The notes beneath the pieces are model-generated. The model had not been told where the DNA came from and made no database searches. It saw only the letters and a program-made list of their open reading frames with translations. A DNA stretch of 64,000 nt from Deltaproteobacteria bacterium (GTDB lineage Bacteria > Myxococcota_A > Polyangia > Polyangiales > JADJMO01): NCBI GenBank assembly GCA_016182965.1, contig JACPFM010000026.1, positions 30,190-94,189 of the forward strand, in the 5' to 3' direction. Shown piece after piece: positions 2,058 through 31,284 of the stretch (positions within the stretch are counted from its first letter, which is position 1; each line of letters opens with the position of its first letter). A program made the position numbers and the translations under genes.

Positions 2058-2128
2058 TGGGGGATCGTCTAACGGCAGGACGACGGATTCTGGCTCCGTC
2101 TATCTAGGTTCGAATCCTAGTCCCCCAG
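2058..2128 (+). tRNA. tRNA-Gln (anticodon CTG)
   Basis: A 71-nt cloverleaf was folded by hand: acceptor TGGGGGA/TCCCCCA, anticodon stem ACGGA/TCCGT with loop TTCTGGC, T arm CTAGG-TTCGAAT-CCTAG, discriminator G. CCA is not encoded. Confidence 0.85.
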
Positions 2129-2174
2129 CTCGGCCGTCTCCGCCAGATTCGGCCTGTGTGAGTGAGATCAGGTT

Positions 2175-2246
2175 GGCCCCATCGTCTAGCGGTTAGGACA
2201 TCGGCCTCTCACGCCGGTAACACGGGTTCAAGTCCCGTTGGGGTCG
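2175..2246 (+). tRNA. tRNA-Glu (anticodon CTC)
   Basis: A 72-nt cloverleaf: acceptor GGCCCCA/TGGGGTC, anticodon loop CTCTCAC, T arm ACGGG-TTCAAGT-CCCGT. It aligns with the canonical tRNA-Glu layout. The 3' end now reads GTCGCTA rather than GTCGCCA. Confidence 0.85.
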
Positions 2247-2247
2247 C
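2224..2247 (+). repeat. attL: direct repeat GGGTTCAAGTCCCGTTGGGGTCGC inside the intact tRNA-Glu
   Basis: Exact 24/24 match to 15682-15705. Confidence 0.85.
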
Positions 2248-3847
2248 TATCAGTAATGAACAGAGGGCCGAGCGCGGCAGATCCCTGGATCTGGAAGCGG
2301 CGGCCCTCTGAGCTTTCCAGCGGCGCGAACGTCAGCGGCCCGTCCAACAGCGCTTCGAGGACGCGGCGCGCCTCCGCGGGGTTGCGGTCCACAAGGCCGC
2401 GCAGGTCGTCGAGACGCTGACGCGCCTCGCGCTCCATGCGGCGCACTTCGAGGCTGAGCGCTCCCGGCGCTGCGCGCGATGCGCGGAGATCCGCTTCGAG
2501 CGTCGCGACGCGCTTTTCGCGCTCGCCGATCGCGCGAAGCACCGCGCCGGGCTGCTCGCCGCCCGCCATCGCGAGCACAGACACGAGGCGATCAATCTCG
2601 GCGCGCAGCGTCCGGATCTCGGCCTCGGCCTGAGGACCGCGCGCGTCCGCAGTCCTCGCCCGCGTTTCGAGGCGGCGGCGCACCTCGCGGAGCGTCTCGA
2701 CGATCAGCGACTCGCGGAGCACGTTCTCGCGGATCCACGACAGCACCGCGTGATCGACGTGCTCGACCGGGCGCGCGATCGCGTTCGCGCAGACGGCGGC
2801 GCCTCGCACGCGGCGCCACGAGCACACGTAGACCTTGATCGTCTCTCGGCCCGAACGCCCGTTGACCGCTTGGATCGGACCGCCGCACGTTGCGCAGCGC
2901 GCGAGCCCGGAGAGCATGTAGCGAGCCGGCGGCCCCTTGGCACCGATGCGTCCGGTGATGCGCTTCAAGCACTCGATCTTCGCCTGCACCGCGCCCCACA
3001 GCTCTTCGTCGACGATCCGCAGTTCGGGGCGATCGACGCGGGTCCATTCGGACTCGTCGCGCGCGACGTGGACCTTCGTGCCGCCGCGGTACGCTTTGCC
3101 GAGGCGTCCCCAGATCAAGATCCCGCGGTACCGATCACGGCGGAGCATCTCGCGGATCCCGTTCGGGCACCACGAGCGCGTCCCGCGCCGTCCCGCACGC
3201 GGCGACGGCACGCCACGATCGTTCAGCGACTTGCAGATCGCGCGGAGCCCCTGCCCCTCGGCGAAGCGCCGGAAGATCTCGCGGACCACCTCGGCCTCGC
3301 GCTCGTTGATCGCGTAGTCGACGGCGACACGCCGCGCGCCGTCCATGATGGGCACGTTGTCATACCCGAACACGCGGCCGCCCGCGTTCAGGCCCTTGCG
3401 CGCCTTCGTCGCGAGGTGCTCCAGGGTCCGGCCGGCGATCTTCTCGCGCTCCATCTCGGATGCCGCGCTCTGCACGGCGACGACGACCTTCTGCATCGGC
3501 GAGTTGAGCGTCACCTCGTCGTCGGAGAAGTAGAAGAACAGGCGCACGCCGTGCTCGACGAACTCTTGGATCGCGAGCGCGGTCCGGAAGGTGTCGCCGC
3601 CGAGCCGCGATTCGTCGCGGACAACGATCGCGTCGAACGCCCGTGCCTCCGCGGCCGCGCGCAGCGAGTTGAACGCGTGACGCTTGACGAACTCGGACCG
3701 GCTTACGCCGTCGTCGACGAACACGTGCGAGGGGTCGAGCGTCCATCCCTTCGAGGCGATGTAGCGGCGCGCCTCGGCGATCTGCACTTCGAGGGACGCG
3801 GCTTGGTGATCGTCCGTGCTCCGCCTCGCGTAGACCGCTGCGCGCAT
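2228..3847 (-). CDS. large serine recombinase (integrase of the element)
   Basis: N-terminal resolvase domain with catalytic-Ser context (MRAAVYARRSTDD). Recombinase domain, zinc ribbon (CATCGG...VCSW...CAN) and a C-terminal coiled coil. ATG at 3847 is preceded by GGAGG. The stop TGA (2228-2230) lies inside the tRNA/att repeat. Confidence 0.9.
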   Translation of the reverse strand: MRAAVYARRSTDDHQAASLEVQIAEARRYIASKGWTLDPSHVFVDDGVSRSEFVKRHAFNSLRAAAEARAFDAIVVRDESRLGGDTFRTALAIQEFVEHGVRLFFYFSDDEVTLNSPMQKVVVAVQSAASEMEREKIAGRTLEHLATKARKGLNAGGRVFGYDNVPIMDGARRVAVDYAINEREAEVVREIFRRFAEGQGLRAICKSLNDRGVPSPRAGRRGTRSWCPNGIREMLRRDRYRGILIWGRLGKAYRGGTKVHVARDESEWTRVDRPELRIVDEELWGAVQAKIECLKRITGRIGAKGPPARYMLSGLARCATCGGPIQAVNGRSGRETIKVYVCSWRRVRGAAVCANAIARPVEHVDHAVLSWIRENVLRESLIVETLREVRRRLETRARTADARGPQAEAEIRTLRAEIDRLVSVLAMAGGEQPGAVLRAIGEREKRVATLEADLRASRAAPGALSLEVRRMEREARQRLDDLRGLVDRNPAEARRVLEALLDGPLTFAPLESSEGRRFQIQGSAALGPLFITDSDPNGT

Positions 3848-4111
3848 GATCGCTACCTCCGGGGGAAGCGTAGAAGATCGGCGACGAGGAGATCGGCGAG
3901 GCTGACAATCAATGTCCGCACGCGCGGATCGCGGCTGCCGAGCGAGTCGTCCGCCGCGGCGGACCGCCCGGTTTGCGGCGCTGCGTCCGCCGGCGCCCGG
4001 CGCTGCTCCCGCGACGTTCTCGGCACGGCGACAGCTTCGCTGCCGCCGCGCGCTCGCAGGTGTGACGAGAACTTGGCCGCCGCGAGGGGCTCCGGTCACA
4101 CCCTAGATGAC

Positions 4112-4792
4112 GTGGGCGCGGACGAGCTGACTGCCAAAGCCATTCGCGAGCACGCAACCTCGGTGGCACAACTGGCTGAGCAAGCAGGCGTGCTCACGGA
4201 GCTTCGCCTCGGCGTTGCGCGGTTCCTTGTCGCTGGATCGATCGCGCGGCGTGACGCGCGGATCGTCGCCGCGGCGACGAAGGCACCGCGCGCGTGGTCC
4301 GGCGCCGTCGATGCGGCCGAGAAGGCACTCCTCGCTGTGCACGACGCGGCCGGCGCCGAGCCGCCGAGGACTGTCAATCGAGCGTATCGAGCGGTGGTTA
4401 CCGCGCTCGGCGCGTTGCGCGAGGAGGTCGATGTCTGGCGCGTTCGGGAAGCGTCAGTGCCGGCGACGGGCGCTGCCCATCCCTTCTTGGCGGAGGACGC
4501 TGCGGCATTTCTGGACTTGGTACGGAACGGCCTCGGAATCGATCTTTCGCAGTTCGCCGCGCTCATCGTGTGCGGCACGAAGAACAAGCCCTGGTCGCGT
4601 CGGTACCCTTCGCGATCAGCCGAGCAACTTCGATCCGCGCACCGTCGCGCGCACAACGCGTTGCGGAAGATCGCCGCGCGTGGTGGTGCCCTCGAAGACG
4701 TGCAGCACGTCAGCCTGACGCCGGAGGAGGCGCTGGCGCGCGTTCGCGCCTACGTTCGCGGTTCGCCAACGCGCGCTCGCACCGGGGTGTGA
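4112..4792 (+). CDS. hypothetical protein (island)
   Basis: GTG 4112 is the first start after the in-frame stop. It is the C-terminal part of track ORF 2750-4792. The sequence is helical and protein-like, whereas the opposite-strand ORF 4096-4656 is Arg/Ser-rich junk. GC3 is lower than in core genes. Confidence 0.45.
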   Translation: MGADELTAKAIREHATSVAQLAEQAGVLTELRLGVARFLVAGSIARRDARIVAAATKAPRAWSGAVDAAEKALLAVHDAAGAEPPRTVNRAYRAVVTALGALREEVDVWRVREASVPATGAAHPFLAEDAAAFLDLVRNGLGIDLSQFAALIVCGTKNKPWSRRYPSRSAEQLRSAHRRAHNALRKIAARGGALEDVQHVSLTPEEALARVRAYVRGSPTRARTGV

Positions 4793-4908
4793 CGAGCTGG
4801 GCGGCCTCGCGCGGCCGTCCCGTCACACCTCGGCCCGAGCCACGGCCGTAGCGTCAAGTGCGCGCCCGCCGCGCGCTCCTGATCACACGCGGCGGGCCGA
4901 GGAGGAAC

Positions 4909-5166
4909 ATGGCAAGGGTATTTCCGCGAGCCGCGCGCCGCAACGCCGCCCGCCGCAACGTCCAACCTGCTCTCGCGCTGAAGATCGCGATCTGGCGCAG
5001 CGGCCGCCCGCAGTATGAGATCGCGCTCGCCGCCGGCCTCTCTGCCACGACGCTGAGCATGATCGTCGTCGGCCGGCGTCAGACATCGGCATCGGAACGC
5101 CGCCGGATCGCGCGCGCGCTCGGCGTCGCCGTTGGCCGTCTCTTCGGCGCACGGAGGGACGGATGA
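4909..5166 (+). CDS. XRE/Cro-like helix-turn-helix protein
   Basis: ATG 4909 is preceded by GAGGAGG. HTH segment RPQYEIALAAGLSATTLSMIVVGRR. Confidence 0.65.
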   Translation: MARVFPRAARRNAARRNVQPALALKIAIWRSGRPQYEIALAAGLSATTLSMIVVGRRQTSASERRRIARALGVAVGRLFGARRDG

Positions 5167-5636
5167 GCTCGCCGAGGATGCCTTGGGAGTCGACCTACTT
5201 CGCGAAGGTGCCGCTCGGGATCGTCTGCCTCAATCTGACGCCCTCCGAGCGCGAGGTCTATCGCGCCCTCGCGTTTCGTTGCTGGTACAACCGCGAGGAC
5301 ACCGGCGGGTACACGGTCGTCAGCGCCGACCAACTCTCCATCGAGGCTGGGGTGAGCCGGAAGGCGGCGATCAAGGCGCTCGCCGAGCTGCGCGTGCTCG
5401 GGCTCGTGGACCGTGTGCAACTCGGGCCGACCGAGTTCGCGTATGCGTTGCTCGATCTGCCACCTGAGGTGTTCCGTGTCAGCGAGCAGCTCGCACGTCC
5501 CTTCGATCCGCTTCGCACTCGTGCAGGCAAGGCAAGGTTCCGGAAGGCTCTCGAAAGGGCGAAGAATGCCTCCGCTCGGGAGGCACCGGAACGGTTGTCG
5601 CGAGGACGCGAAGCGCCGAGCGACTCTCTCCAATGA
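5163..5636 (+). CDS. winged-helix DNA-binding protein (replication-organiser or regulator-like)
   Basis: ATGA overlap with the upstream HTH gene. Segment VSADQLSIEAGVSRKAAIKALAELRVLGLV is typical of a wHTH. Confidence 0.55.
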   Translation: MSSPRMPWESTYFAKVPLGIVCLNLTPSEREVYRALAFRCWYNREDTGGYTVVSADQLSIEAGVSRKAAIKALAELRVLGLVDRVQLGPTEFAYALLDLPPEVFRVSEQLARPFDPLRTRAGKARFRKALERAKNASAREAPERLSRGREAPSDSLQ

Positions 5637-5840
5637 GCTCTCCCAATCCTCTCGTAAGGAGAGCCCAGCCTCTGCGGGCCCGAAAAGGGCACGCTCCGGG
5701 CCCAAAGGGGGACCGCCGGCGAGCCCGAAAGCGTCACGCGCAACGCTGCCGCGGCGTGCCCCGAACCGGGTCACGCCACGGCGCGCCCGGTCACACCGGG
5801 GGCGGCGAAGCTGTCGATTCGGCCTCGCGCGGGCGCACAC

Positions 5841-6173
5841 TCAGTGCCGAGCACGCCTTCCCGGTTTTCGCGGTCGACCCGCGGCACGTTCGAGCGGCGC
5901 CGTTTTGCGGAGTAGCCGCGCAACGGGCTGACCGAGCGCCTCTGCGATGGCGTGAAGTACCTCGATCGTTGGGTTCGCGCGCGCGGCCTCGATCCGCTGC
6001 AGATGCTTGGGATCGAGCCCGGCGGCGTCGGCCAGATCCTCTTGGGTCATCCCGCGTCGCGTCCTGCCACGCCTTACGTTGGCGGCGATGAACTGGCGAA
6101 GCGTCGGGAGATCCGGGCGAGGCACGCCCGTCGGCCGTATCGGTAGAATCCGATCCGATACACCGCACGACAC
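5841..6173 (-). CDS. XRE-family transcriptional regulator (candidate repressor)
   Basis: RGMTQEDLADAAGLDPKHLQRIEAARANPTIEVLHAIAEAL is a classical HTH_3 pattern. The start is GTG 6173 or the alternative GTG 6125. Confidence 0.8.
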   Translation of the reverse strand: MSCGVSDRILPIRPTGVPRPDLPTLRQFIAANVRRGRTRRGMTQEDLADAAGLDPKHLQRIEAARANPTIEVLHAIAEALGQPVARLLRKTAPLERAAGRPRKPGRRARH

Positions 6174-6247
6174 GGGTAGTTTACGATCGTGCGCCGGACG
6201 GCTGTGTAACGTCGACGAACGCGCTGCACGCGAGAGAGGACGCGGCG

Positions 6248-7159
6248 ATGGCTTCGCAGAAGAGCAGTAGGGGTTCCGGTTGTCTCGGCAGTGGGATCGT
6301 GATCCTCGTCACCGCGGCGGTGCTGGGGAAGTGTGTCTGCGGCCGCGACGCGAAGGAACAAGCCTCGGCGCCGAACGAACCGGCGAAACCGGTGCCGCAG
6401 CCCGTCGCGAAGGCGGCGGTGTCGTCTGCGGCAGGGGCCAGCGGCTCGGCAAGCGCGGCGCCCGCCTCGGCGTTCGACGCGTTGTGGCGCGCCGCAACGT
6501 CTCCCCCGCCGAAGCAGAATTTCGATCAGGTTTTCGCACTGGTGCTGTCGCAGGCCGACTACTGCGCCACGCACGATTGCGGGGACGAGTTCACCCGCGA
6601 GCAGCGGTACAAGGACGCGAAGGAGGCCGCGAAGAAGATCCGCGCGGCGACATGGCGCACGACGCTTCCGGCGGAGAAGGTGGGGCTGCTCTCGGGTCGA
6701 GAAGGATTTGCGATCGGCGAGTTCAACCCCGCGCGCGTCGAGCTGCCGATCGTCCTCGAATGGCCGCGCGCACTGGGCGGGAAGCTCCACCTTGGCGGGC
6801 CTGCCGGCGACGTCGCCACCGACTGCGCCCCCCGGCGACCCGGTATCGAGCGCCTCATGATGCCGAACGGCGAAGCGAACAACTCGTGGGTCAAGTTCAA
6901 GACGACCGAGCTGGCCGTGAAGTTCGCCAGCGTCGACGAAGCGAAGGCTTGGAAGCAGCGTTCCGATAACCCCGCGCTGTTGCAGCTCGTCTTCCGAATC
7001 ACGGACCAAGCCGTCGACATCCGCAAGACGACGCAGAGCGGCGTCACGCTCGATTCGGGAGCGGGCGGTCTAGCGATCGTGCAGGTGCTCGGCGCTCGGC
7101 TGTTGGACGGATCGCGCGTGCTCGCGGGGAAGCCCACCGGACCGGCGCCCACGAAGTAG
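6248..7159 (+). CDS. hypothetical membrane-anchored protein
   Basis: N-terminal hydrophobic segment GSGIVILVTAAVLGKCVC, then a Pro/Ala-rich linker. No family recognised. Confidence 0.55.
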   Translation: MASQKSSRGSGCLGSGIVILVTAAVLGKCVCGRDAKEQASAPNEPAKPVPQPVAKAAVSSAAGASGSASAAPASAFDALWRAATSPPPKQNFDQVFALVLSQADYCATHDCGDEFTREQRYKDAKEAAKKIRAATWRTTLPAEKVGLLSGREGFAIGEFNPARVELPIVLEWPRALGGKLHLGGPAGDVATDCAPRRPGIERLMMPNGEANNSWVKFKTTELAVKFASVDEAKAWKQRSDNPALLQLVFRITDQAVDIRKTTQSGVTLDSGAGGLAIVQVLGARLLDGSRVLAGKPTGPAPTK

Positions 7160-7296
7160 GCGGCGGATGCCCGTCTGCCGCGACGGCTGCGCTCGATCGG
7201 ATACACCGCCCGAAGCGGGTGGTTTCCTTCCCGCGCGCTCGCACCGCGTGTACCCTCGCGCGTGCGTCGACGCGGCGAGCGACAGGAGAACTCGGG

Positions 7297-7848
7297 ATGG
7301 CGAGGAGCAGCACGCAGCCTGGACCGCAGCCACACACCTCCGCAACGTGGTCTCGCGATCCATCGCGGTGGACGGGCCTCGTGATGGTCCTCGCCGTCGC
7401 GGCAGCTGACTGCGGGCGTAACGCGGCCCCGTCGGTCGAATCGTCAGCGCGCTCGCCGTCTGCCTGCCCACCGTGTCCGTCCGTGGCGCCGAGCGCGGCC
7501 GCGGCGTCCACCTCTCCACCGGCGGCGCCCGCAGCAGCCGGCGATTTCGAGGTGCGCTACCCCACGATCGACGCGTTCGTGTCGTCGATGATTGAGGGCG
7601 GGCACAAGGTGACCCGACGTAAGAACTCGGACGGCTCTTCGGGGCAGTTCTTCCTCGTCTATCCCGGCGTGGTCGAGGGCGAGAAGCTGACACTCGATGG
7701 CAGGAGCGTAGACTGCTGGCTCTACGACAGTCGTGCGCAGTGGGAGAAGCTCGATCACTGGCTCGACGTTCAAGTGGCCCAGATGAAGGGCTGGATTCCG
7801 AAGAAGGCGCAGGTAACCGTCTTCGGGAACGTCAAGTGCACCGGGTAG
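7297..7848 (+). CDS. hypothetical lipoprotein-like protein
   Basis: ATG 7297 is preceded by AGGAG. Hydrophobic segment LVMVLAVAAADCG has a lipobox-like Cys. Confidence 0.5.
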   Translation: MARSSTQPGPQPHTSATWSRDPSRWTGLVMVLAVAAADCGRNAAPSVESSARSPSACPPCPSVAPSAAAASTSPPAAPAAAGDFEVRYPTIDAFVSSMIEGGHKVTRRKNSDGSSGQFFLVYPGVVEGEKLTLDGRSVDCWLYDSRAQWEKLDHWLDVQVAQMKGWIPKKAQVTVFGNVKCTG

Positions 7849-7996
7849 GTGGGGCCGCCGGGCTCGATCCGCGTCTCGACGTGGCGGTAGCGAAGATCTG
7901 GCGCGAACAGATCTGGCGCGGCGGCGTCTCGGTTCCACACTTGAAGGCGTGAACGAACCGAGACGGCACACCGCAATCGCGTGGAGGGCGTGAGCC

Positions 7997-8485
7997 ATGC
8001 CGCGCCGATGCTCGGTCTGCGACCATGCCGCGCGAGACGAGATCGATCGCGCGCTGATCTCCGGTGAACCGTTCCGGAACATAGCGGAACGGTTCGCCGG
8101 GCTCACGGCCGCTTCGATCCATCGGCACCGTCACGGGCACCTCACGGCCGCGGTTCGTCACGCGCGCGAGGCCGAAGACGTCCAACGCGGCGCGACGCTG
8201 CTCGATCAGGTCCGCGCACTGCACGCGCGGACACTGCGGCTGCTCGCGAAGGCCGAGGCCGAGGACGACGCGCCGACCGCGCTGCGAGCGCTACGCGAGG
8301 CACGCGCCGGGTTGGAGTTGCTGGCGAAGCTGCTCGGCGAACTGGACACGGCGCCCACGGTGACCGTATCGCTCGGCACGGAGTGGGCCTCGCTGCGTAC
8401 CGCCATCCTGCGCGCGCTCGAACCGTTCCCGGACGCGAGGAGCGCCGTCGCGCAAGCGATTGCACGGAGTGCCGATGCGAGCTGA
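7997..8485 (+). CDS. small-terminase-like / phage DNA-binding protein
   Basis: N-terminal MPRRCSVCDH...ISGEPFRNIAERFAGLTAASIHRHRHGHL (Cys pair plus HTH), then a coiled-coil-like tail. It sits directly upstream of, and overlaps, the large-terminase ATPase gene. Confidence 0.5.
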   Translation: MPRRCSVCDHAARDEIDRALISGEPFRNIAERFAGLTAASIHRHRHGHLTAAVRHAREAEDVQRGATLLDQVRALHARTLRLLAKAEAEDDAPTALRALREARAGLELLAKLLGELDTAPTVTVSLGTEWASLRTAILRALEPFPDARSAVAQAIARSADAS

Positions 8486-9248
8486 CGCCCGGGCGGATCT
8501 TCGCCACGCCCTCGATCCCGCGGCCTTCGCGATCGAGGCGCTCGGCATCACGCCCGACCCCTGGCAGCACTCGTTCCTTCGCTCGACCGCGCGACGGCAG
8601 ATCCTGCTCTGCTCGCGGCAGTCCGGGAAGTCCACCGTCGCGGCGATCGCGGCGCTGCACCGGGCGCTCTTCTACCCTCAGTCACTCGTGCTGGTCGTGT
8701 CCCCTTCGATCCGGCAGTCGGGCGAGCTGTTCCGGAAAATCGTCCACCACGTGACCCGCTTGGCTGTCGCGCCGGACCTATCCGAGGAGTCGCGACTGTC
8801 GATGCGCCTCGCGAACGGATCGCGCGTCCTCTCGCTGCCGTCGAGCCCCGAGACGATCCGCGGGTTCTCGGCGGCGTCGCTCGTGATCGAGGACGAGGCC
8901 GCGTTCGTCGACGATGACTGCTACGTCGCCATTCGCCCGATGTTGGCCGTCAGCAAGGGCAGACTCGTGCTCATGAGCACCCCGTTTGGCAGGAGGGGGC
9001 ATTTCTACAGGGAGTGGTCGTCGGGCGGGGGGCAGTGGGAACGGTTCTCCGTGACCGCCGCACAGTGCCCGCGGATCTCGCCGGAGTTCCTTGCCGAAGA
9101 GCGGGAGAGCCTCGGGGCTTGGCGATGGTTGCAGGAGTACGGAGCCGAGTTCGTCGAGTCGGACGATCAGCTTTTCGCGATCGACTTGGTGCAGGCCGCG
9201 ATCGCATCCGATGTCGAGCCCCTCCTTTTCGGTCTGGCCCATGCATAG
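8475..9248 (+). CDS. terminase large subunit, ATPase domain only
   Basis: Walker A (LLCSRQSGKSTV), Walker B (ASLVIEDEAAFV), coupling motif (LMSTP). The ORF stops at TAG 9246-9248, just before the nuclease domain. Confidence 0.8.
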   Translation: MRADARADLRHALDPAAFAIEALGITPDPWQHSFLRSTARRQILLCSRQSGKSTVAAIAALHRALFYPQSLVLVVSPSIRQSGELFRKIVHHVTRLAVAPDLSEESRLSMRLANGSRVLSLPSSPETIRGFSAASLVIEDEAAFVDDDCYVAIRPMLAVSKGRLVLMSTPFGRRGHFYREWSSGGGQWERFSVTAAQCPRISPEFLAEERESLGAWRWLQEYGAEFVESDDQLFAIDLVQAAIASDVEPLLFGLAHA

Positions 9249-9981
9249 CTTCTGCACCGGCGTCGATCTCGGGCAGGCGCGCGACCACACGGCGATCGTC
9301 ATCGTCGAGCGCGTGACGGGCTCGCCCGAGACCTATCACGTGCGCCATGCGGAGCGGCCGCCTCTGGGCACCGCGTACCCTGCCGTGGTCTCACGCGTGG
9401 CGTCGATCCTCGCGTCGGCGCCGATGTGCGGCGTGTCGTCGCTCGTCGTCGACGCAAGCGGGGTCGGTCGGCCCGTGGTCGATCTCTTCGTCGCCGCGGG
9501 GCTTCGGCCGATCGGCGTGACGATCACGGCCGGCGCGACGGCGAGCGGCGGCGGCACGGAGCACCGCGTCCCGAAGCGCGATCTCTGCGCGCTGCTCCAG
9601 GTCCTTTTGCAGGGCCGGCGCCTAAGGATCGCCGCGGCGATGGCCGAGCGCGCGGCGCTCGTCGAAGAGCTGCTCGCCTTCCGCGTGAAGATTGACGGCG
9701 CGACCGCGCGCGATTCGTACGGCGCCGGCAGCGGGACGCACGACGATCTCGTGATGGCGTTGGCGCTGGCCTGTTGGGGCGCGCGCGAGGCTCCGGCGCC
9801 GCTTCCCGTCGCCGGCCTCTCCGAAGCGTATCAGAGCGACGAGGACGACCCTTGGGACTTCGGATGGGTCCTCGGGACGTCGCGGCCCGTGACGCGCGCG
9901 GAGCGCGCGCCGCGCACGATCCCAGGAGCGGCCGGCGCGCCGCCCAACCCTCGGCCACCGCCGCCCTACGTCGTTCGATAG
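9241..9981 (+). CDS. terminase large subunit, RNase H-like nuclease domain only
   Basis: GVDLGQARDHTAIVIV and GTHDDLVMALALA match the acidic catalytic strands of terminase nuclease domains. ATG 9241 overlaps the upstream stop (ATGCATAG). Confidence 0.75.
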   Translation: MHSFCTGVDLGQARDHTAIVIVERVTGSPETYHVRHAERPPLGTAYPAVVSRVASILASAPMCGVSSLVVDASGVGRPVVDLFVAAGLRPIGVTITAGATASGGGTEHRVPKRDLCALLQVLLQGRRLRIAAAMAERAALVEELLAFRVKIDGATARDSYGAGSGTHDDLVMALALACWGAREAPAPLPVAGLSEAYQSDEDDPWDFGWVLGTSRPVTRAERAPRTIPGAAGAPPNPRPPPPYVVR

Positions 9982-10103
9982 GCGACCGGCGTCGTGCGCG
10001 AGGCCGATCGTGTTCGCGGACCGAACGGTTGGCGAACAAAGCCGGGGGCGCACGCCGCGTCATGACGCGCGTTGGCCGGCGGGTTGCATTGCCGGGGGCA
10101 CCT

Positions 10104-10346
10104 ATGTCGAGAGCGTCACGACCCAAGACCGCTCGTCGCATCTCGCCGCTCGGTGCGCTGCGCCTGTATGACCCTGACGGCTGGGCACGCGAGGTCCGAC
10201 GCGCGATGCGCGGCGCGGGCGGCCGCGTCCCTGCCGCAGCGGAGGCGCTCGGCATCTCCACGCGTCAACTGTTTCGCTGGCTCGACGATCCGGCGCTCGC
10301 AAACGTCGAGCGCGCCGCGGTCGGTACGCGCCCGGACGGCGACTGA
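10104..10346 (+). CDS. small HTH protein (candidate excisionase / recombination directionality factor)
   Basis: 80 aa. The segment AAEALGISTRQLFRWLDDP is HTH-like. Located between the terminase and resolvase genes. Confidence 0.5.
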   Translation: MSRASRPKTARRISPLGALRLYDPDGWAREVRRAMRGAGGRVPAAAEALGISTRQLFRWLDDPALANVERAAVGTRPDGD

Positions 10347-10368
10347 TCGCTAGATCGTGCATACATAC

Positions 10369-10536
10369 GACACGCGTGTCACAGGTTGCGGCGATGGCCG
10401 ATTCCCCGACGTATTCGGGCCGTTGCACGAGCGGTTACGCGCGCGCACGGGGGCACGCGCGACACGCGTGTCATAGCTTGCCCGCGCAGCGGGCCGAGCG
10501 TCCACGATCCAACCTGCGCCATGCGTGTCACAGGTT
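10369..10536 (+). promoter_or_regulatory. three res-like / operator repeats upstream of the resolvase gene
   Basis: The perfect 12-bp palindrome GACACGCGTGTC occurs at 10369-10380 and 10461-10472. A degenerate third copy lies within the inverted repeat AACCTG-N14-CAGGTT (10511-10536). The shared unit is ACGCGTGTCAYAGSTT. Confidence 0.55.
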
Positions 10537-10565
10537 CGGCATGTGTCGTGCACCATGCTCGGGCC

Positions 10566-11261
10566 ATGTCGCGTCGCCCCGCTTCCGACCCCGGCTTTGC
10601 CGTCGCCTACCTCCGCGTTTCGACGGAAGCGCAGGAGCTTGGTCCCGAGGCGCAGCGCGCCGCGATCGAGCGCTGGGCCGCAGCGCAGGGCGTCGCCGTC
10701 GTCGCGTGGTTCGAGGATCACGGCGTCAGCGGCGCAACGGCGCTGGACGAGCGCCCCGGCCTCCTCGCGGCCCTCGCCGCGCTCCGCGACCGCCGCGCGG
10801 GCGTGCTCGTTGCAGCGAAGCGCGATCGCATCGCGCGCGACGTCGTGATCGCCGCGATGGTCGAGCGCGCCGCGAAGGCCGCCGGCGCGACCCTCCGCAC
10901 GGCGGACGGTGCGAGCGACTCGGCGGGCCCGGAGGGGGCTCTCATGTCTGGGATCGTCGACGTGTTCGCCCAGTATGAGCGCGCCCTCATCCGCAGCCGT
11001 ACGAAGGCGGCGCTCGCGGCGAAGAGCGCGAAGGGTGAGCGCGTTGGGACGGTGCCGTTCGGCTTCGCGCTCGCCGCTGACGGCCGCTCGCTTGTTGGCA
11101 ATGAGGCTGAGCAGGCCGTGATCGCGGAGGCGCGGGCGCTCCGCGCAGCCGGGCTGACGGTGCGCGCGATCGCCGCGGCGCTCGACGCGAAGGGGCTCCG
11201 GTCGCGGAAGGGAACCGCGTTCGGGATCGCGCAGGTGCACGCGATGGCGTGCGCGGCGTGA
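10566..11261 (+). CDS. small serine recombinase (resolvase/invertase family)
   Basis: FAVAYLRVSTEAQ catalytic-Ser motif, VAAKRDRIARD, and a C-terminal HTH (GLTVRAIAAALDAKG). Confidence 0.85.
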   Translation: MSRRPASDPGFAVAYLRVSTEAQELGPEAQRAAIERWAAAQGVAVVAWFEDHGVSGATALDERPGLLAALAALRDRRAGVLVAAKRDRIARDVVIAAMVERAAKAAGATLRTADGASDSAGPEGALMSGIVDVFAQYERALIRSRTKAALAAKSAKGERVGTVPFGFALAADGRSLVGNEAEQAVIAEARALRAAGLTVRAIAAALDAKGLRSRKGTAFGIAQVHAMACAA

Positions 11262-11312
11262 CGCTCACGTCGTTGACACGGCGCCCCTCGTGCTTACACG
11301 AGAGGGACTCGA

Positions 11313-11537
11313 ATGCTCGACGAAGCTCACGAACTGCTCCAGCTCGCACAGCTGCAACTCGATCGTCTTCGTGGGTTCCCGGAGGCGTCCGAGAAGCAGC
11401 GGAGTGAGATCGCGGGAAGCGCGGTGAACTTGCTCCGGAACGCCCGCAAGCTCCCTTCGATGTCGCCCGAGCACAGGACGCGCGCCGAGGAGATCGAGAA
11501 GGCCGTGCGGGCGGAAGCTCCGACGTCCGCGACGTGA
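11313..11537 (+). CDS. small helical hypothetical protein
   Basis: 74-aa ORF with a plausible helical sequence. No family recognised. Confidence 0.35.
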   Translation: MLDEAHELLQLAQLQLDRLRGFPEASEKQRSEIAGSAVNLLRNARKLPSMSPEHRTRAEEIEKAVRAEAPTSAT

Positions 11538-11945
11538 GGAGCAGCGCGCGTCAAGCACCGTGACGGCGTTTCGGTGCTCAGGTTCGCTGGCATAGGTGTG
11601 CCGGGCCCGGTACGCTGTATCGCGCAAGCGATTGCGCCGACGGACGGGCGTCGGGGCGTTCCGCGCCGCTCGGTGTGTCTTCGCGCAGTCCGCGTAGGTA
11701 CACGGCGGCGCGATCGGCACCGGACGTCACTCGGTCGCAAAAATAGAGGAAAGCAGGGTGCGCCGCGCGGACGCTTCACCCTGCCTTCACGAGCTGGTCT
11801 AGCACGCGACGGTGCTCCACGGAACGGCCGCGGCTCAAAAGCTCAGGTCGGGCGGCTCAACCATGGCCGCCGGCGGCGACCTCAGGCAACGAGCGCGACG
11901 GGGATGCCTGAGCCGAAAACGTCGGCGATCCGACGATCCACAACC

Positions 11946-11971
11946 GGTCCGAACCCCTTGGGGTCGCCACG
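11946..11971 (+). repeat. degenerate third copy of a tRNA-Glu-like 3' end (internal att-like remnant)
   Basis: GGTCCGAACCCCTTGGGGTCGCCACG. It shares TTGGGGTCGCCACG exactly with 15696-15709 and is likewise followed by a hairpin and T-run. No tRNA 5' half lies upstream. Confidence 0.6.
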
Positions 11972-12014
11972 GAAGCCCCTGGATTTCAAGCAAATCCGGG
12001 GCTTCTGCCTTTTT
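11972..12014 (+). terminator. rho-independent terminator-like hairpin
   Basis: GAAGCCCCTGG...CCGGGGCTTC stem followed by TTTTT (12010-12014). Confidence 0.55.
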
Positions 12015-12145
12015 GTGGTCCGAAATTCGGTCCAGGAAGAGCCCTCGGCAGTCCGGTCATCACACGGAACGCGGGATGACGCCGAGGTGCACGCGCCTCG
12101 CGCGGCCGCGGCGACATGTCGAGGGCCGCTCCGGCGCGCCGCTCG

Positions 12146-13063
12146 TCAACTCCCGATGTCGATCTTTGCCGCCGCACGGAGCCTGACCTCGAGCGCGGCG
12201 ATGAACGTATCGCGTCGTACCTTGGCCATGCCGTTCTTCACCGAGAGCGCGTCGAACGCGCGTGCAGTTCCGACGATCTTCGTCGCACGAAGCAGCCACC
12301 ACTGCCCTTTGGCGTCGACGACCGGGCCGGAGACCTGGCCGGGCCTGCGAAGCGCGAGCGCCGCACGAATCACGGCCTCGTCGCGCGCGGAGTGTTCGTC
12401 GACGACCCCGAGATCGCCGGCCATGGACTTCGACGAGTCGATGGACTCCGCCGCCACGAGGGCGCCGAACGCCTCGGACGTCGAGCCCCAGGCCTTGCTC
12501 GCCAGCGCGTCGGCGCGAGACGCCTCGGTGACGACCAGCGCCTGGACCTGCACCCCTTCGACCTTCACGAAGTCCTCGGGGTGCGCGTCGAAGAACGCCC
12601 GGGCCTCGGCGTCGGTGATGGCGTCACGCTGCGAGGCCGCTGTCTTCAGCTCTGCCGCGATCAGCGCCTGCGACAGCTCGGCATCACCGCCCCCCGCGAG
12701 GCCGCGACGTCGGGCCTCGCGGGCGAACAGGCGAGCGCGAATCAGCTCGTCGAGCGCACGGCGTCGTGGCTCCGCCCGCGGAGCGTCGATGGGGATCACG
12801 GGCGCGCGGACGAGCGCGTCGACCGAGGCCGCGGCGATGGGCTCCCCGTCGACGCAGGCCGCCACCGCGCGGTTGGGAGTGCATGGGAGCGTCGGCCGCG
12901 AGCAGCCTACGAGCAACGCACACGCGAGGAGCCGAGCGGTGAGCGACCTTACGGGACGACCGGCGCCGACGCTCCCGGCGGAGCGTCGATGGGAATCACT
13001 AGATGCACTTGCCGATGGTCGACCACCAGAAATCGTCGTCGGCCTCCCAATACTCGTCGCCAC
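12146..13063 (-). CDS. parvulin-type peptidyl-prolyl isomerase (SurA/PrsA-like) lipoprotein; start unresolved
   Basis: C-terminal PPIase-like region (MAGDLGVVDEHS...GQVSGPVVDAKGQWWLLR). Lipobox LLACALLVGC. No ATG/GTG/TTG lies between the upstream stop (12999) and the lipobox. Candidate starts are GTG 13063 and TTG 12916. Confidence 0.6.
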   Translation of the reverse strand: MATSIGRPTTISGGRPSASASSDSHRRSAGSVGAGRPVRSLTARLLACALLVGCSRPTLPCTPNRAVAACVDGEPIAAASVDALVRAPVIPIDAPRAEPRRRALDELIRARLFAREARRRGLAGGGDAELSQALIAAELKTAASQRDAITDAEARAFFDAHPEDFVKVEGVQVQALVVTEASRADALASKAWGSTSEAFGALVAAESIDSSKSMAGDLGVVDEHSARDEAVIRAALALRRPGQVSGPVVDAKGQWWLLRATKIVGTARAFDALSVKNGMAKVRRDTFIAALEVRLRAAAKIDIGS

Positions 13064-13916
13064 AGTTGCCGTCCCCCGGGTTCGTCGACCCACCGTGGAT
13101 CCTTCCGCAGCGATCGTGATCGAGGCAGTCGTACGTGTAGCCAGCGCCGGTGCACCCCGGGCCGCATTTGCCCAGGCAGTCGGTGGAGTACTTCCCGGCG
13201 TAGACACTCTCGCCCGACAAGCAGTGGCCTGAGGAGTCGTGCACCGCCCAGGAGTTCGCGTTGCAGCGAATGTACCAGATACCGTCCTCGTTGCTTTGGT
13301 TGCAGAAGTTCGCCTCCGAGCCAACCGCCGTGGTGGGCGCGCCGGTGGCGTCGACACACTTGCCGTCCTTGGCCGCCGCGATCGCCTCCTCCTCCGACGT
13401 CGGCATTCCGGGCACCGGGGCCTTCACCCCGGTCTTGATGACGGGCGGACCGAGATCGCGCGCCGGCATCGTCAGCCCCGCAGGCGCCTCGGACCAGAAC
13501 CACACACGGCGGACGAGCAGGTCCTCGTGGATGGAGGCGGTCTGTCCCTCGGGGAAGATCGGATTGAGCGCCGCGCTGAACGCCTTGAGGGTCTCGAGCT
13601 CGTCGGCGTACAGCGCGCCGTCGTGGCCGTCCCAGTGCAGTCTCTGGGCCGCGGCGTCGAGCGACGCGTCGAACACCACGCCGTTCACCTCGAGGTGCAG
13701 CACGGCGTGCGCAGGCGCGTCCGTGCGCGTGGAGAACTTCAGCATCGAGGCGCCGTGGGAGAACGTCCCGGCGAACGACGACTCGGTGCGCTCGGAGATC
13801 TGGAGCGCCCCCTGCGTCGCGCTCGTCGACGAGGGCGCGTCCGACGGCGCGATGCATCCACCCATGGGGACCGCAACCAGGACGGCGACCACTGCCACGA
13901 GGGAGAATCGGTTCAT
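12999..13916 (-). CDS. secreted lipoprotein with Cys-rich C-terminal domain
   Basis: MNRFSLVAVVAVLVAVPMGGC signal plus lipobox. The C-terminus is dense in Cys (CLGKCGPGCTGAGYTYDCLDHDRCG...GNCGDEYW). Confidence 0.6.
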   Translation of the reverse strand: MNRFSLVAVVAVLVAVPMGGCIAPSDAPSSTSATQGALQISERTESSFAGTFSHGASMLKFSTRTDAPAHAVLHLEVNGVVFDASLDAAAQRLHWDGHDGALYADELETLKAFSAALNPIFPEGQTASIHEDLLVRRVWFWSEAPAGLTMPARDLGPPVIKTGVKAPVPGMPTSEEEAIAAAKDGKCVDATGAPTTAVGSEANFCNQSNEDGIWYIRCNANSWAVHDSSGHCLSGESVYAGKYSTDCLGKCGPGCTGAGYTYDCLDHDRCGRIHGGSTNPGDGNCGDEYWEADDDFWWSTIGKCI

Positions 13917-14041
13917 GCCAGGCAAGCCGAGCAACAACGTTGCCAGGAGCGTGAAACCTCGATTCCTCGTGCATTCCACGTGAGCCGTCCCCCGCCCGGT
14001 TCAGTTTCTTGACGCCGCGTTCAGATTTTTGATCTACCGGT

Positions 14042-15232
14042 TCAGAACCTGAACCGACGACGAGCCATGGCTGCCGCCAGTACGAGCGCCGCGGCGAGGC
14101 CCAGGGGGCGCCCACGCTCCCCGACGACGCAGCCGCCCGACGCGTCGGTCTCAGGCGCACGTGTGGGGCTCGCTCGCAGGCACGGCTCGAAGCAGCGGCA
14201 ACTCGCATCCTCGCCGCTGCTGAACTGCAAGCACGCAGCCCCTCCACAGTCGCTCGCCGAGCCGCAGGCCGCGCCGAAGCGCCCTGCCCGGGGCCCGCGG
14301 TACCCGCAACGTGCGCCGTCGCGCTCCGGCAGGCACGCCATGCCGGCCGGGCAGTCACGCTCGGTCGAACAAGTGTTGGTGCAGAAGTCGGCGGTCGGAT
14401 CGCCGCTACGAGGGGCGGCGACGGACGACAGCTCCGCGATCGCTCCGGCGAGAAACCCCTCGTCGATCATCGTGGCCACGCCGTAGGCCTTGCACGTCGA
14501 GTCTCCGCTCCTCGTGATCGCAACGAGTCGTTCCTCGCCGTCGAGGGTCGCCAGGATCGCCCCGCCCGAGTCGCCCGCGCACACCAGCGCCGGCGCAGGC
14601 TCGAAGCGAATCGTGCCCGCGTCGATCGAGACGAGCTTTGCCGTGCCCGTCGCGCGCGCGCCAATGGCTCCGCCCTCCTCCCAGCGGCCATACCCGACCT
14701 GGCGCACCAGGGTCCCGACAGGCGAGACATCGATCGCCGAACGACGCAGCGGCACGGTCACCGCATCACGCGCGAGCCAGACCACCGCGAGGTCGTTCGC
14801 TCGCGCCGCGGCGTCATAGTCCGGGTGCACCCGGCTCGCGACGACGCGGGCGTGCGTACCACCCCCCAGCCCCACATCCTCGCCGAAGAACACCTCGAGC
14901 TCCTCGGCACGGCGACCCTGGAGGCAGTGCGCGGCGGTGAGAACGGCGCGCGGCGCGACGAGCACCCCCGAACAAAACGTGTCGACCTCACGCCCCTCCG
15001 GACACAGCGTGCGTCGATCGCGTAGGGCGACGACCGCGTGATCGTCCCGCGAGGGCTCGCCGCCGACGATCGGCGACGCTGCCGTGCGCGTGCTCTCGGC
15101 GTCGCCGGCGCAACCACCCAGTTGGAGCCACACGAGCGCGACACAGCCGGCGCAGCCCGCGAGGCGCGCGCGCTGCAGCATGACGCCGGCGCGAGGGTCG
15201 GCGTTGCCGCGGCGCGGAGTCGACTCCGTCAT
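14042..15232 (-). CDS. trypsin-like (S1) serine protease with MYXO-CTERM-type sorting tail
   Basis: IVGG start of the mature protease, LTAAHC (His), GDSGG (Ser). Cys-rich linker. Tail GGCVVGERGRPLGLAAALVLAAAMARRRFRF. The start is ATG 15232 or 15181. Confidence 0.8.
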   Translation of the reverse strand: MTESTPRRGNADPRAGVMLQRARLAGCAGCVALVWLQLGGCAGDAESTRTAASPIVGGEPSRDDHAVVALRDRRTLCPEGREVDTFCSGVLVAPRAVLTAAHCLQGRRAEELEVFFGEDVGLGGGTHARVVASRVHPDYDAAARANDLAVVWLARDAVTVPLRRSAIDVSPVGTLVRQVGYGRWEEGGAIGARATGTAKLVSIDAGTIRFEPAPALVCAGDSGGAILATLDGEERLVAITRSGDSTCKAYGVATMIDEGFLAGAIAELSSVAAPRSGDPTADFCTNTCSTERDCPAGMACLPERDGARCGYRGPRAGRFGAACGSASDCGGAACLQFSSGEDASCRCFEPCLRASPTRAPETDASGGCVVGERGRPLGLAAALVLAAAMARRRFRF

Positions 15233-15681
15233 CACCGAGAGGTTACGAGCGCCGAGGCGCGGCGGCCAACACGTGCTCGGCCACGACACGAAGGCAGCGC
15301 ACCGCATCGTCGGAAGCCGCCCTACCCGCCCGACATCGCGGAAGCAGCTCGCACCGCCTGGGATTCCATCAGGTCGATGGGGCGGCCGATCGTCCAGACG
15401 ATGTCTGGACACTCTTGTCCGCGAGGCTCCCCAGCGATTGTCGAGACGGCGTCCGGAGATCTCGCGGTACGCGAGGTAGAGGCCGCGCATCTGGTGGAGA
15501 TTCGGAGATTCGAGCGACCGAAGCCACGATCGAAGCGTCGGGTGAGATCGGCGGCGCCCTGGCCCAACGAGCTGGCCCATGCTCGCGTAGTCGCGAGCTT
15601 ACGCGCGCGATATCGCACGAACCACCGCGATCGTTGCCGCCAATTCCATGCGCTCAAGCGCGGATCCCAGCAGAATTTGGT

Positions 15682-15705
15682 GGGTTCAAGTCCCGTTGGG
15701 GTCGC
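15682..15705 (+). repeat. attR: second copy of GGGTTCAAGTCCCGTTGGGGTCGC
   Basis: Exact copy of 2224-2247. It continues as ...GTCGCCA (encoded CCA). No tRNA 5' half lies upstream. Confidence 0.85.
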
Positions 15706-15710
15706 CACGA

Positions 15711-15749
15711 AGCCCTCTGATCAATGCGGTCAGAGGGCTTTCGCCTTTT
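15711..15749 (+). terminator. rho-independent terminator-like hairpin (probably the native tRNA-Glu terminator)
   Basis: AGCCCTCTGA / TCAGAGGGCT stem followed by CTTTTG. Confidence 0.55.
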
Positions 15750-15816
15750 GTTCGTCGGCGCGCTCCGGGCGACGGGCGGGGAAGCTCTCGGGCGAGCGCG
15801 AGGGGTCAGCCGTAGC

Positions 15817-16881
15817 TCATGGCTTCCCGCGTCCCTTCTTCGCGCGGGTAGGCGCCGGCTTCTGGAGCAGCTTCGCCGTCGCCTCGAACGCGGCGTCGAT
15901 CGCGCGAGGCTTCGCGTCCTGGAGGGCCTGGTAGCGATCGTACTCCCGCTCGGCCCTCGCCTTCGCGACCTCCGCCGAGATGGTCCCGGCGTGATCGAGC
16001 AGCTTGCGGCCCGAGGCCTTCAGGAACTCGTCGAGCTTGTCGACCCAACCGCGCATGGTCATCGGCTTGCGCTCGAGCGCCTGCAGCTCGGCGAACTCGA
16101 TGTAGAGGTTCACGATGCGGTGGAGCACCTGCAGCTCCGGCTCGGTCAGGTAGTTCTTGGCGATCGCGGCGTCGCCCTTGCGGACCACACCTCCGGGTCG
16201 CGTCGTCTGCATGCCCATGAAGGGTTTGTCGCCGTCGGCGCGCTCGTGGACGATCTCGGCGGCGGTGTGCCCGTGCGCGGCCCAGTGCATCTTGTTCTGC
16301 ACCGTGGCGAAGAACTGCTGCGAGAGATCGTTGTCGGGCTGGTAGTCGACGCTGGTCGCGTAGATGTCGAGGACCTTCTGGTAGAAGCGGCGCTCGGACG
16401 CGCGGATGTCGCGAATCCGCTCGAGCAGCTCGTCGAAGTAGTCGGTGTGGCCTGGACCGGGCGGGTTCTTGAGCCGCTCGTCGTCCATGGTGAAGCCCTT
16501 GACCAGGTACTCCGCCAGGCGCGCGTTGGCCCACTTGCGGAACTGCGTGCCGCGATGGCTGCGGACGCGGAAGCCGACGGCGAGGATCGCCTCGAGGCTG
16601 TAGTAGCGCAGAGTGCGCGAGACCTGGCGGGCGCCCTCGGTTCGAACCTGTAAGAACGGCTTACAAGTTGCCGACTCGTTGAGCTCGCCGTCGGCGTAGA
16701 TCTCGCGCAGGTGCTGCGTGATGTTCTGTGGCGTCGTCTGGAACAGCTCGGCGATCAGGGCCTGCGTCAGCCAGACGGTCTCGCCCTCGAAGCGGCACTC
16801 GATGCGCGTGCGGCCGTCTTCGGTCTGGTAGATGAGCAGCTCGCCTTTGGGGGTGTCGTTGGTCGAGTTCTTCTCCGTCAT
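15817..16881 (-). CDS. RhuM-family virulence/defence-associated protein
   Basis: The sequence pattern (ELLIYQTEDG...RIECRFEGETVWLTQ...FRVRSHRGTQFRKWAN...DERLKNP) matches what I recall of the RhuM family. The alternative ATG is 16908. Confidence 0.7.
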   Translation of the reverse strand: MTEKNSTNDTPKGELLIYQTEDGRTRIECRFEGETVWLTQALIAELFQTTPQNITQHLREIYADGELNESATCKPFLQVRTEGARQVSRTLRYYSLEAILAVGFRVRSHRGTQFRKWANARLAEYLVKGFTMDDERLKNPPGPGHTDYFDELLERIRDIRASERRFYQKVLDIYATSVDYQPDNDLSQQFFATVQNKMHWAAHGHTAAEIVHERADGDKPFMGMQTTRPGGVVRKGDAAIAKNYLTEPELQVLHRIVNLYIEFAELQALERKPMTMRGWVDKLDEFLKASGRKLLDHAGTISAEVAKARAEREYDRYQALQDAKPRAIDAAFEATAKLLQKPAPTRAKKGRGKP

Positions 16882-17101
16882 GGCCAATCCGTTGGTAGTG
16901 GCCGCCATCCCTTCACGGGGCTGCCGCTATTGAAAGCGAAGAGCTCCGCGCGCGGAATATCGACGTAAACGACGTCATCGACGTCAGGCTCGATGAGCAG
17001 ACAGAGGTTACGCTACCAGCGCTCGCGCGGCGGGCAATCAACTACCGACGTGGGCCGAGGCTATTGAGGGCGCTTTGACGTAGGGCCTGCTCGTCGGCAC
17101 G

Positions 17102-18073
17102 TCACAGCATCCGCTCCAGTGACGCCGGCGTCCTCGGGTCGACCGCGACAGGTTCCTGCTCGAGCCACAGACCGCGGCTCGCGAGCTCCCGCACGAGAGC
17201 CGGCGCTTCGCCGAGATCGAGGTCCTCGGGCCATATCCCCGGCAGCCCCTTCGCCTCAACGAGCTCAGTCCAGAACTCCGGCACGAACCACAGCAGGTCG
17301 GAACGGAGCGCCCGGAGATGCCGGAGGATGCGTACGCCGTTGGGGTCGAGGTCGCCGAAGTGGACCAGGGGCACATGGACCACACGCTCGAGAAGTCGAG
17401 CGACCGTTGCCGTGTCCCATCCAGGCACGTGCACCAGCAGCCAGCCATCGACGGCGCGTAGATCGCAGAACGCGCCGAGGTTCTCGACGAGCAGCGCCGC
17501 GCGGATCGTTCCTTCGAGAGCGAGGCCTGCGCTGAGGGCACGTTCTGGGATCGACACCTCACCGAGGACAGCCGCAACTGCTGCCAGGTCGACTCTCCCC
17601 TGTGGCGTGATCGCGACCAGTCCTTGCGGCGGTCGGAGGCGCACCGAACCGTCGTGCGTGGCCTCAGCGTCGCCGAGCGCGGCCAGGCGCCGATCCGTGA
17701 GCGTCGCCTTCGAGTGCGGCGCGACGAGTGCGGCCGCGGTTCGCCGGTTGAGCTGGTCTGGAAGCTGCGGCAGCCCCTCGGCGCGCTGCGCGTCTCCGAG
17801 CTCGCTCCAGCCGTCGGGGGTGGGCGCGAGCCCGCGCGCCGTCAGCGCTGCGAGCACCTCGCCCCACTCCGGCCAGACACGCCCGAGCAGCGCGACAAGC
17901 TCGTGTCGCCGTTCTTCGACAAGGCCGACCTCGTCACGACGCCCCGTGCGTCGTGTCCAAGGTAGTTCGTCGAGGGCATCCCAGGCAGACGCTTGCGCAC
18001 GTCGTCGCTTGAGCGAGCCGCGAACGAGCAGCTCCAAGAGGGCGAGACGGGCCGCCTCGGATCGCCAGTTCAC
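17102..18073 (-). CDS. jetD: Wadjet JetD (Toprim-domain nuclease subunit)
   Basis: Toprim-like LLVENLGAF and HFGDLDPNGVRILRHL motifs. GTGA overlap with the jetC stop. Confidence 0.8.
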   Translation of the reverse strand: MNWRSEAARLALLELLVRGSLKRRRAQASAWDALDELPWTRRTGRRDEVGLVEERRHELVALLGRVWPEWGEVLAALTARGLAPTPDGWSELGDAQRAEGLPQLPDQLNRRTAAALVAPHSKATLTDRRLAALGDAEATHDGSVRLRPPQGLVAITPQGRVDLAAVAAVLGEVSIPERALSAGLALEGTIRAALLVENLGAFCDLRAVDGWLLVHVPGWDTATVARLLERVVHVPLVHFGDLDPNGVRILRHLRALRSDLLWFVPEFWTELVEAKGLPGIWPEDLDLGEAPALVRELASRGLWLEQEPVAVDPRTPASLERML

Positions 18074-27960: not shown

Positions 27961-28079
27961 CACGCCGTGACCTCCGAGTCGTCGATGTGCAGCACCTCGA
28001 TGAAGCGGGCGATGTGCTTGGTGGTCTCCTCGTCGTCGGGCGTGAGGAGGATCGGCTTGAACTTCTTGTCCTTGCTCAC
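27960..28079 (-). CDS. possible 39-aa leader ORF coupled to lmuA
   Basis: GTG 28079 gives SKDKKFKPILLTPDDEETTKHIARFIEVLHIDDSEVTA. Its TGA overlaps the lmuA ATG (ATGA). No clear RBS. Confidence 0.3.
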   Translation of the reverse strand: MSKDKKFKPILLTPDDEETTKHIARFIEVLHIDDSEVTA

Positions 28080-29826: not shown

Positions 29827-29846
29827 TCGCGACGGCCCCCTGCCCG

Positions 29847-29894: not shown

Positions 29895-29958
29895 TGCCCC
29901 GCGCCCCGACGGCCTCCGATCCACGAGGATTTCCGACGAATCCCGGCTCGGTGCCCGT

Positions 29959-31258: not shown

Positions 31259-31284
31259 AAACACCGAGAAAAGGAGGGGTCTCC

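Follow-up and report, generated by a model that had tools for sequence, protein, structure and literature searches.

The 64,000-nt stretch of DNA analysed here (the window, part of a genome of 9.6 Mb) contains a tRNA-Glu(CTC) gene that has served as the target of mobile DNA encoding a large serine recombinase (LSR). We consider it likely, with a probability of roughly 0.7, that a satellite-like element of 9.7 kb (2239–11958) was put into the 3′ end of this tRNA gene by its own LSR, and that an older islet lies beyond it. A preliminary description of the window had proposed a single integrated island of 13.5 kb between two copies of a 24-bp tRNA repeat; insertion at the 3′ end of tRNA-Glu stands, but what was inserted is probably the 9.7-kb element within a composite island, as the arm provided by the distal 24-bp copy yields an attP site with symmetry at the level of chance. 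The coordinates of all features are collected in Table 1.

The 24-mer GGGTTCAAGTCCCGTTGGGGTCGC is present exactly twice in the window, at 2224–2247 and 15682–15705, and these same two copies are the only ones in the genome; it is absent from all of 100 shuffled versions of the window. ARAGORN and Rfam agree on an intact tRNA-Glu at the left copy, preceded by a tRNA-Gln, and neither finds a tRNA at the right copy, which rules out that the latter belongs to a second complete tRNA gene. The right copy continues as CCA, a hairpin with a 14-bp stem and a T-run (−24.9 kcal/mol, z = −5.4), and the unoccupied tRNA-Glu genes of two genomes of the same genus, G001 and G002, have the same ending of CCA and terminator. 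The repeat, the intact tRNA at its left copy only and the original-looking tRNA end with its terminator at the right copy are thus as the preliminary description had them. The rebuilt tRNA is directly followed, within the coding end of the LSR gene, by a long hairpin that may act as a substitute terminator and is kept in L056, a metagenome contig with a closely related LSR.

The LSR displays the canonical domain order of Resolvase (PF00239, 1.2e-23, residues 3–152), Recombinase (PF07508, 4e-23) and Zn_ribbon_recom (PF13408, 7e-10), and contains the nucleophile motif YARRST, within AVYARRSTDD, with Ser10 invariant in our alignment A3. It matches its homologues over its full length and has no internal stops; its best match in the PDB is distant (E = 1e-7). 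The TGA stop codon, at 2228–2230, lies inside both tRNA-Glu and the repeat, as had been noticed before, although the repeat holds five codons (DPNGT) and two bases of a Ser codon in addition to the stop, and not seven codons. In the integrated state the protein ends in ...DSDP-NGT. No Phage_integrase domain (PF00589) was detected in any of the scanned open reading frames (ORFs) of 2228–15934.

Of the 355 homologues of the LSR returned by a protein search, most come from Myxococcota, with Polyangium and Sorangium among them. Within the top 120, at least 66 take their C-terminal peptide from codons on the antisense strand of a tRNA T-arm, such as ...ASPAGFEPA, ...DPSGIRTRV, ...RPQRDSNPC and ...DPNGT. 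Genome-wide searches within the same order and class yielded 39 homologous loci (32–53% identity); in 30 of these the LSR gene lies antisense against a tRNA gene, which is tRNA-Glu (TTC or CTC) in 29 cases and tRNA-Lys in one. The LSR reading frame typically enters the tRNA and stops there at varying depth, although in L076 the stop codon merely abuts it. Of the nine loci that do not conform, several are truncated by the end of a contig or occupy an inner position in a tandem array. The linkage between LSR and tRNA is a family trait, and because it holds across the family and no tyrosine integrase was found among the scanned ORFs of the island, we conclude with high confidence that the LSR is the integrase of this tRNA-Glu site, as the preliminary description had supposed. 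The enzyme belongs to a large and deep clade of Myxococcota that nearly always targets tRNA-Glu and also occurs on viral contigs. A single-protein search of genome contigs found distant LSRs only (24–31% identity), and no homologue was found in G001 or G002.

The 3-kb JGI metagenome contig L056 encodes an LSR 83% identical to that of the window, with a 2-nt deletion before the core that leads to an early stop (...LFTP). No tRNA or core follows the gene, and an IS200-like Y1 transposase gene adjoins it; L056, probably a copy that has decayed or moved elsewhere, is uninformative.

Both ends could be located for seven related islands of 11–48 kb, with cores of 13–24 nt. Five cores are 14 nt long (one with a single mismatch) and follow the pattern CCCnnnGGGG(T/A)C(G/A)C, one comprises 13 nt, and that of G486 comprises 24 nt with one mismatch. 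When attP was reconstructed by joining the right-end arm to the arm on the side of the LSR, all seven sites proved to be imperfect inverted repeats, with 12–20 of 29 positions symmetric versus about 7 expected by chance and a peak at zero shift; in G087 the symmetry runs over 17 consecutive positions and in G442 over 11. The centre of symmetry is a dinucleotide, tRNA nt 65/66, that separates the T-stem from the 3′ strand of the acceptor. As an independent check, four viral contigs from IMG/VR, which encode LSR homologues of 40–55% identity and carry an internal attP but no tRNA, display the same centre and the same range of symmetry (12–20/29), as in the attP of L115, TTCCTGACTGTGT-N20-ACACAGTCAGGAA. 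LSRs require a non-palindromic central dinucleotide, and those observed here, TT, TC, GT and CT, are all non-palindromic. Because the attP symmetry is centred there in relatives and viral sites alike and the central dinucleotides are non-palindromic, we infer that strand exchange takes place at tRNA nt 65/66. When nine relatives were screened loosely for additional attR sites, the GC-rich DNA returned nothing but noise.

The closest subfamily (window 2249–2263; L105, L107, G108) shares a conserved P′ half-site, TnTCAGTA(A/G)TGAACA, which overlies the codons of a conserved peptide, LF(T/I)T(E/D); DNA site and protein end would therefore constrain each other.

Inspection of the DNA between the two 24-bp copies revealed a third, degenerate copy of the tRNA end at 11954–12012, which had been missed earlier and which has its own CCA and terminator (hairpin −24.9 kcal/mol). 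The terminators after both tRNA-end fragments are similar to the one that natively flanks the gene in the genus. When this inner site is used as the P arm, the reconstructed attP shows a symmetry of 15/29 (outer arm 11/25, P = 0.02) with the peak at zero shift, whereas the 24-bp copy in the same role gives 8/29 (outer arm 5/25, P = 0.78). To the right of the TT dinucleotide the inner site is identical to the tRNA (GGGGTCGCCA), whereas to the left it is merely T-arm-like (GGTCCGAACCCC vs GGGTTCAAGTCCCG), and its core has a single mismatch to the tRNA, left of the inferred crossover; the match thus has the asymmetry expected at a crossover. Since the inner site fits the attP symmetry, the crossover asymmetry and the reading frame of the LSR tail (see below), the element most likely measures 9.72 kb (2239–11958) rather than 13.5 kb, with 11954–11967 most likely being the cognate attR of the LSR. 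The 24-bp repeat would then probably not be the LSR's own att pair, and the remaining 3.7 kb (11959–15696) would represent an older islet without integrase, derived from a prior insertion at the same tRNA and bounded by the 24-bp fragment.

An octamer, GGTCCGAA, is found in the inner P arm (11946–11953) and again just past the terminator of the inner site (12008–12015), and it occurs twice after the terminator of the native tRNA-Glu of G001 (L110). These octamers could be remnants of P arms that resembled a T-arm, or else serve as a binding motif.

Because attP would lie inside the LSR gene, the excised form of the element would encode a longer protein. Read across TT into the inner P arm, the frame stays open for 25 codons and adds the tail KGFGPVVDRRIADVFGSGIPVALVA followed by a stop, with the ending IPVALVA; the outer arm gives no tail of the family type. 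For comparison, viral contigs, attP reconstructions and database proteins provided 46 tails that are not tRNA-encoded. A hydrophobic-Ala ending, often [ILF]P[LV]...A, is present in 24 of them versus 6.5% of random genome frames, and all three distinct viral tails (FPLVVAA, QVPLAA and LPFVAAAAA) have it. The excised-form LSR would thus probably be a protein of 561 amino acids with a conserved tail, and the integrated form one of 539 ending in NGT. The earlier proposal that the ORF is identical in the integrated and excised forms is therefore probably wrong, as the 25-residue tail of the inner arm matches the excised-form tails of the family. The tails of the database proteins P0018 and P0108 (...ARMGFRRV... 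and ...ARLGFRRV...) have the look of the conserved ...ARMGFAA ending of P0008 and P0081 after a read-through or a frameshift.

A more tentative idea, which we regard as possible but rather doubtful, is that this tail, with its hydrophobic-Ala-Ala or Val-Ala end, acts as a state-dependent switch whose loss on integration reprograms the enzyme. If so, the tail could be an ssrA-like degron for ClpXP, which would shorten the life of the integrase as long as the element is not integrated; alternatively, it could be a segment needed for integration and not for excision.

Taken together, these comparisons suggest the following sequence of events. The attB of the clade would be the T-arm/acceptor junction of tRNA-Glu, and strand exchange would occur at TT (2238–2239, tRNA nt 65/66). 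The P′ arm, inside the last LSR codons, would replace the 3′ strand of the acceptor (GGGGTCGC), leaving the tRNA intact but without its encoded CCA, and integration would swap the C-terminus of the LSR, from the tailed form of 561 residues to that of 539. The other junction, attR, would be 11954–11967, with the 3.7-kb islet from an earlier insertion into the same tRNA beyond it. The anatomy of the sequence, the linkage to tRNA throughout the family, the attP symmetry and the conservation of the tail are direct observations, whereas the exact position of the crossover, the order of the two insertions, the current mobility of the element and any role of the tail are deductions. Tandem accretion of this kind is directly seen in G442, which supports the plausibility of a composite island. 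There, a single tRNA-Glu carries two successive elements of the LSR family (G442:C2, approximately 125.8–185.8 kb; L099–L101), and at the inner junction the core is directly followed by the older LSR gene.

Several observations weigh against this interpretation. The symmetry of the inner site reaches a P-value of only about 0.02, and in G486, the closest relative with both ends located (52% identity), the repeat comprises 24 nt, as does the outer copy here. The outer islet starts with CCA and a terminator and not with an integrase gene, which is unusual for an older element. The P-values for the tails are overstated, because the motif was defined post hoc and the sequences are related. The large terminase gene of the element is split, and the element may be decaying. 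Finally, no clean empty site with both flanks was found among three genomes of the genus, all of which differ downstream of the tRNA: in G001 and G002 the tRNA-Glu gene is unoccupied, but with different downstream flanks.

Among the alternatives, it is unlikely, though the least so, that the LSR and its sites are a fixed relic that no longer moves, whichever right end was once used. The split of the terminase into two overlapping ORFs, the lack of structural genes and the mismatch in the inner core would agree with this; however, the LSR is full-length compared with its homologues and free of stops, the 25-codon tail frame is still open and has kept the conserved ending, and the mismatch falls on that side of the inferred crossover, the left, on which the sites need not be identical. 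We regard as improbable a single element of 13.5 kb (2248–15681) that is moved by the LSR between the 24-bp copies, with the inner site as relic cargo and the LSR the same in both states. Such an element would account for a repeat that is exact over 24 of 24 positions and unique in the genome, for the similar 24-nt repeat of G486, which likewise includes the T-arm, and for the absence of the 3.7-kb segment from 30 relatives. It would, however, have an attP at chance level, in contrast to 12–20/29 in seven relatives and four viral contigs, and no family-type tail, and its last 3.7 kb would lack mobility genes and begin with a native-like CCA and terminator. That the repeats were made by a tyrosine integrase since lost, with the LSR as a passenger in another role, is highly improbable: long tRNA 3′-end repeats are classically the work of such enzymes (Islander paper), and the outer 24-bp copy may well have originated in this way, but no Phage_integrase domain is found in the scanned ORFs, the LSR lies next to tRNA-Glu in 29 further independent loci of 32–53% identity, and viral genomes carry a matching attP beside the LSR.

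The 9.7-kb element favoured here looks like a phage satellite, since it carries regulators, a replication-initiator-like gene, a terminase and a small serine recombinase, and searches with Pfam and PHROGs found no capsid or tail genes in it. The large terminase is distributed over two frames, an ATPase ORF at 8460–9248 (phrog_7579, full length) and a nuclease-like ORF at 9091–9981 (phrog_27743), which could mean that the gene is frameshifted or a pseudogene, or that the terminase truly consists of two pieces. Apart from the LSR, no gene was found to be common to the related islands, and shared cargo could thus not be used to set the right end.

The outer islet was searched for integrase remnants and mobility genes, and none were found; nor was its 3.7 kb of DNA found in 30 relatives. 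Its three genes have two diverged paralogous trios in the same genome, on C38 (44.4–48.5 kb) and C204 (46.4–49.8 kb), with identities of 26–42%, and the trio of protease, unknown protein and peptidyl-prolyl isomerase (PPIase) looks like a recurring three-gene cassette for secreted proteins or lipoproteins.

The left flank of the tRNA-Glu gene is syntenic in G001 and G002. Because the DNA downstream of the gene is different in each of the three genomes of the genus, the tRNA-Glu(CTC) locus is a hypervariable hotspot. To the right of the island, positions 15706–35000 of the window encode RhuM and then defence systems, without synteny in G001 or G002.

Table 1. Features of the tRNA-Glu locus and its island, in coordinates of the window
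Feature	Position	Strand	Remarks
tRNA-Gln(CTG)	2058–2129	+	upstream partner of the target tRNA; ARAGORN, Rfam
tRNA-Glu(CTC), integration target, intact	2175–2247	+	ends GTCGC-TA; encoded CCA gone
Left copy of the 24-bp repeat	2224–2247	+	holds the 14-nt family core CCCGTTGGGGTCGC at 2234–2247
LSR, 539 amino acids when integrated	2228–3847	−	last 3 codons and stop read from the tRNA (B arm)
Inferred crossover dinucleotide TT of attL, tRNA nt 65/66	2238–2239	+	centre of attP symmetry (7 relatives, 4 viral, inner site)
Long hairpin in the 3′ end of the LSR coding region, immediately past the rebuilt tRNA	2261–2310	+	−35 kcal/mol, z = −3.7
Cargo of the LSR element: helix-turn-helix regulators, replication-initiator-like gene, split large terminase, small serine recombinase	3848–11537		Pfam/PHROGs
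Small serine recombinase, Resolvase domain only	10386–11261	+	PF00239, 2.5e-34
P arm of the inner site	11882–11958	−	in frame, would encode the excised-form LSR tail KGFGPVVDRRIADVFGSGIPVALVA and stop
Probable inner attR core CCCCTTGGGGTCGC	11954–11967	+	exact to the tRNA right of TT, diverged left
CCA, hairpin and T-run after the inner site	11968–12012	+	resembles the native tRNA-Glu flank of G001
Cargo of the outer islet: PPIase-domain protein, unknown protein, trypsin-like protease	12146–15580	−	no recombinase
Outer 24-bp tRNA-end fragment; putative boundary of the older islet	15682–15705	+
CCA remainder, terminator hairpin and T-run 3′ of the outer copy	15706–15752	+

The clade provides, from sequence alone, a concrete attB, an inferred crossover and many natural attP/attB pairs, and its members are candidate integration tools for myxobacteria with their large genomes, aimed at a conserved site. 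The locus also illustrates how an obvious long repeat can mislead on the boundaries of an island.

Judged by layout, the closest published analogue appears to be the ssrA islands of Dehalococcoides (McMurdie et al. 2011, PMC3146451). These encode a CcrB-like serine integrase of about 540 amino acids, DsiB, on the reverse strand beside attL; the 3′ end of its gene always overlaps attL and its stop codon lies in ssrA, and the islands feature a short direct repeat, tandem and integrase-less members and a second, small serine recombinase. Similarly, the LSR gene of the window lies beside attL in antisense orientation, crosses attL and stops in the target RNA gene, and a short tRNA 3′-end repeat marks the far boundary, with two successive tRNA-end fragments here and a tandem in G442. 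In contrast to the DsiB islands, however, the target is tRNA-Glu and not tmRNA, the host belongs to the Myxococcota, and the small recombinase sits at the opposite end of the element, without being conserved in related islands. Of their conserved integration module of DsiB, DsiA, RecF-like, ParB and Mom proteins nothing was found here, the small serine recombinase excepted. The present case goes beyond those islands in that its attP symmetry, the crossover point and an excised-form tail that is conserved can be inferred.

Serine recombinases next to tRNA-Glu have also been described in proviruses of Thermotogota, where they were proposed to recognise the adjacent tRNA gene; these are complete proviruses from another phylum, and the available part of that report describes neither att sites nor an overlap between gene and tRNA. 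The preliminary description was thus fair in calling an LSR at such a site less common, although the Dehalococcoides islands and the Thermotogota proviruses show that it is not unprecedented.

With phiC31, Bxb1, A118/LI and TP901-1 the LSR shares its three domains and a short, imperfectly palindromic attP around a non-palindromic dinucleotide. To our knowledge, canonical large serine integrases use protein-coding or intergenic targets and have attP outside the gene; the LSR described here differs in targeting a tRNA and, probably, in having attP within its gene, and in sequence it is only distantly related to them. No directionality factor, on which excision by such enzymes depends, was identified. 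The CcrAB system of SCCmec likewise employs serine recombinases, the 3′ end of a conserved single-copy gene and tandem accretion of cassettes, but its target is the protein-coding rlmH (orfX) and two large recombinases act jointly. Classical tRNA islands of tyrosine integrases are set apart by their Phage_integrase domain, which is lacking from the scanned ORFs of the island. In the myxophage Mx8 (IntP/IntX; work attributed to Tojo in 1996 and Magrini in 1999), attP reportedly lies inside the integrase gene, the target is a tRNA, and integration alters the C-terminus of the integrase; Mx8 Int is, however, a tyrosine recombinase, with chemistry and att architecture unlike those of the LSR. McMurdie et al. 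(PMC3146451) posed the question of whether DsiB needs the circular form to be fully functional, and the present family makes the question that arises from both DsiB and Mx8 testable, namely, whether the swap of the C-terminus on integration regulates the integrase. The large LSR survey of Durrant et al. (preprint) makes no mention of tRNA. What appears to be new, then, is a deep clade of LSRs in Myxococcota with specificity for tRNA-Glu, for which a crossover point can be inferred and whose conserved tail would be lost on integration.

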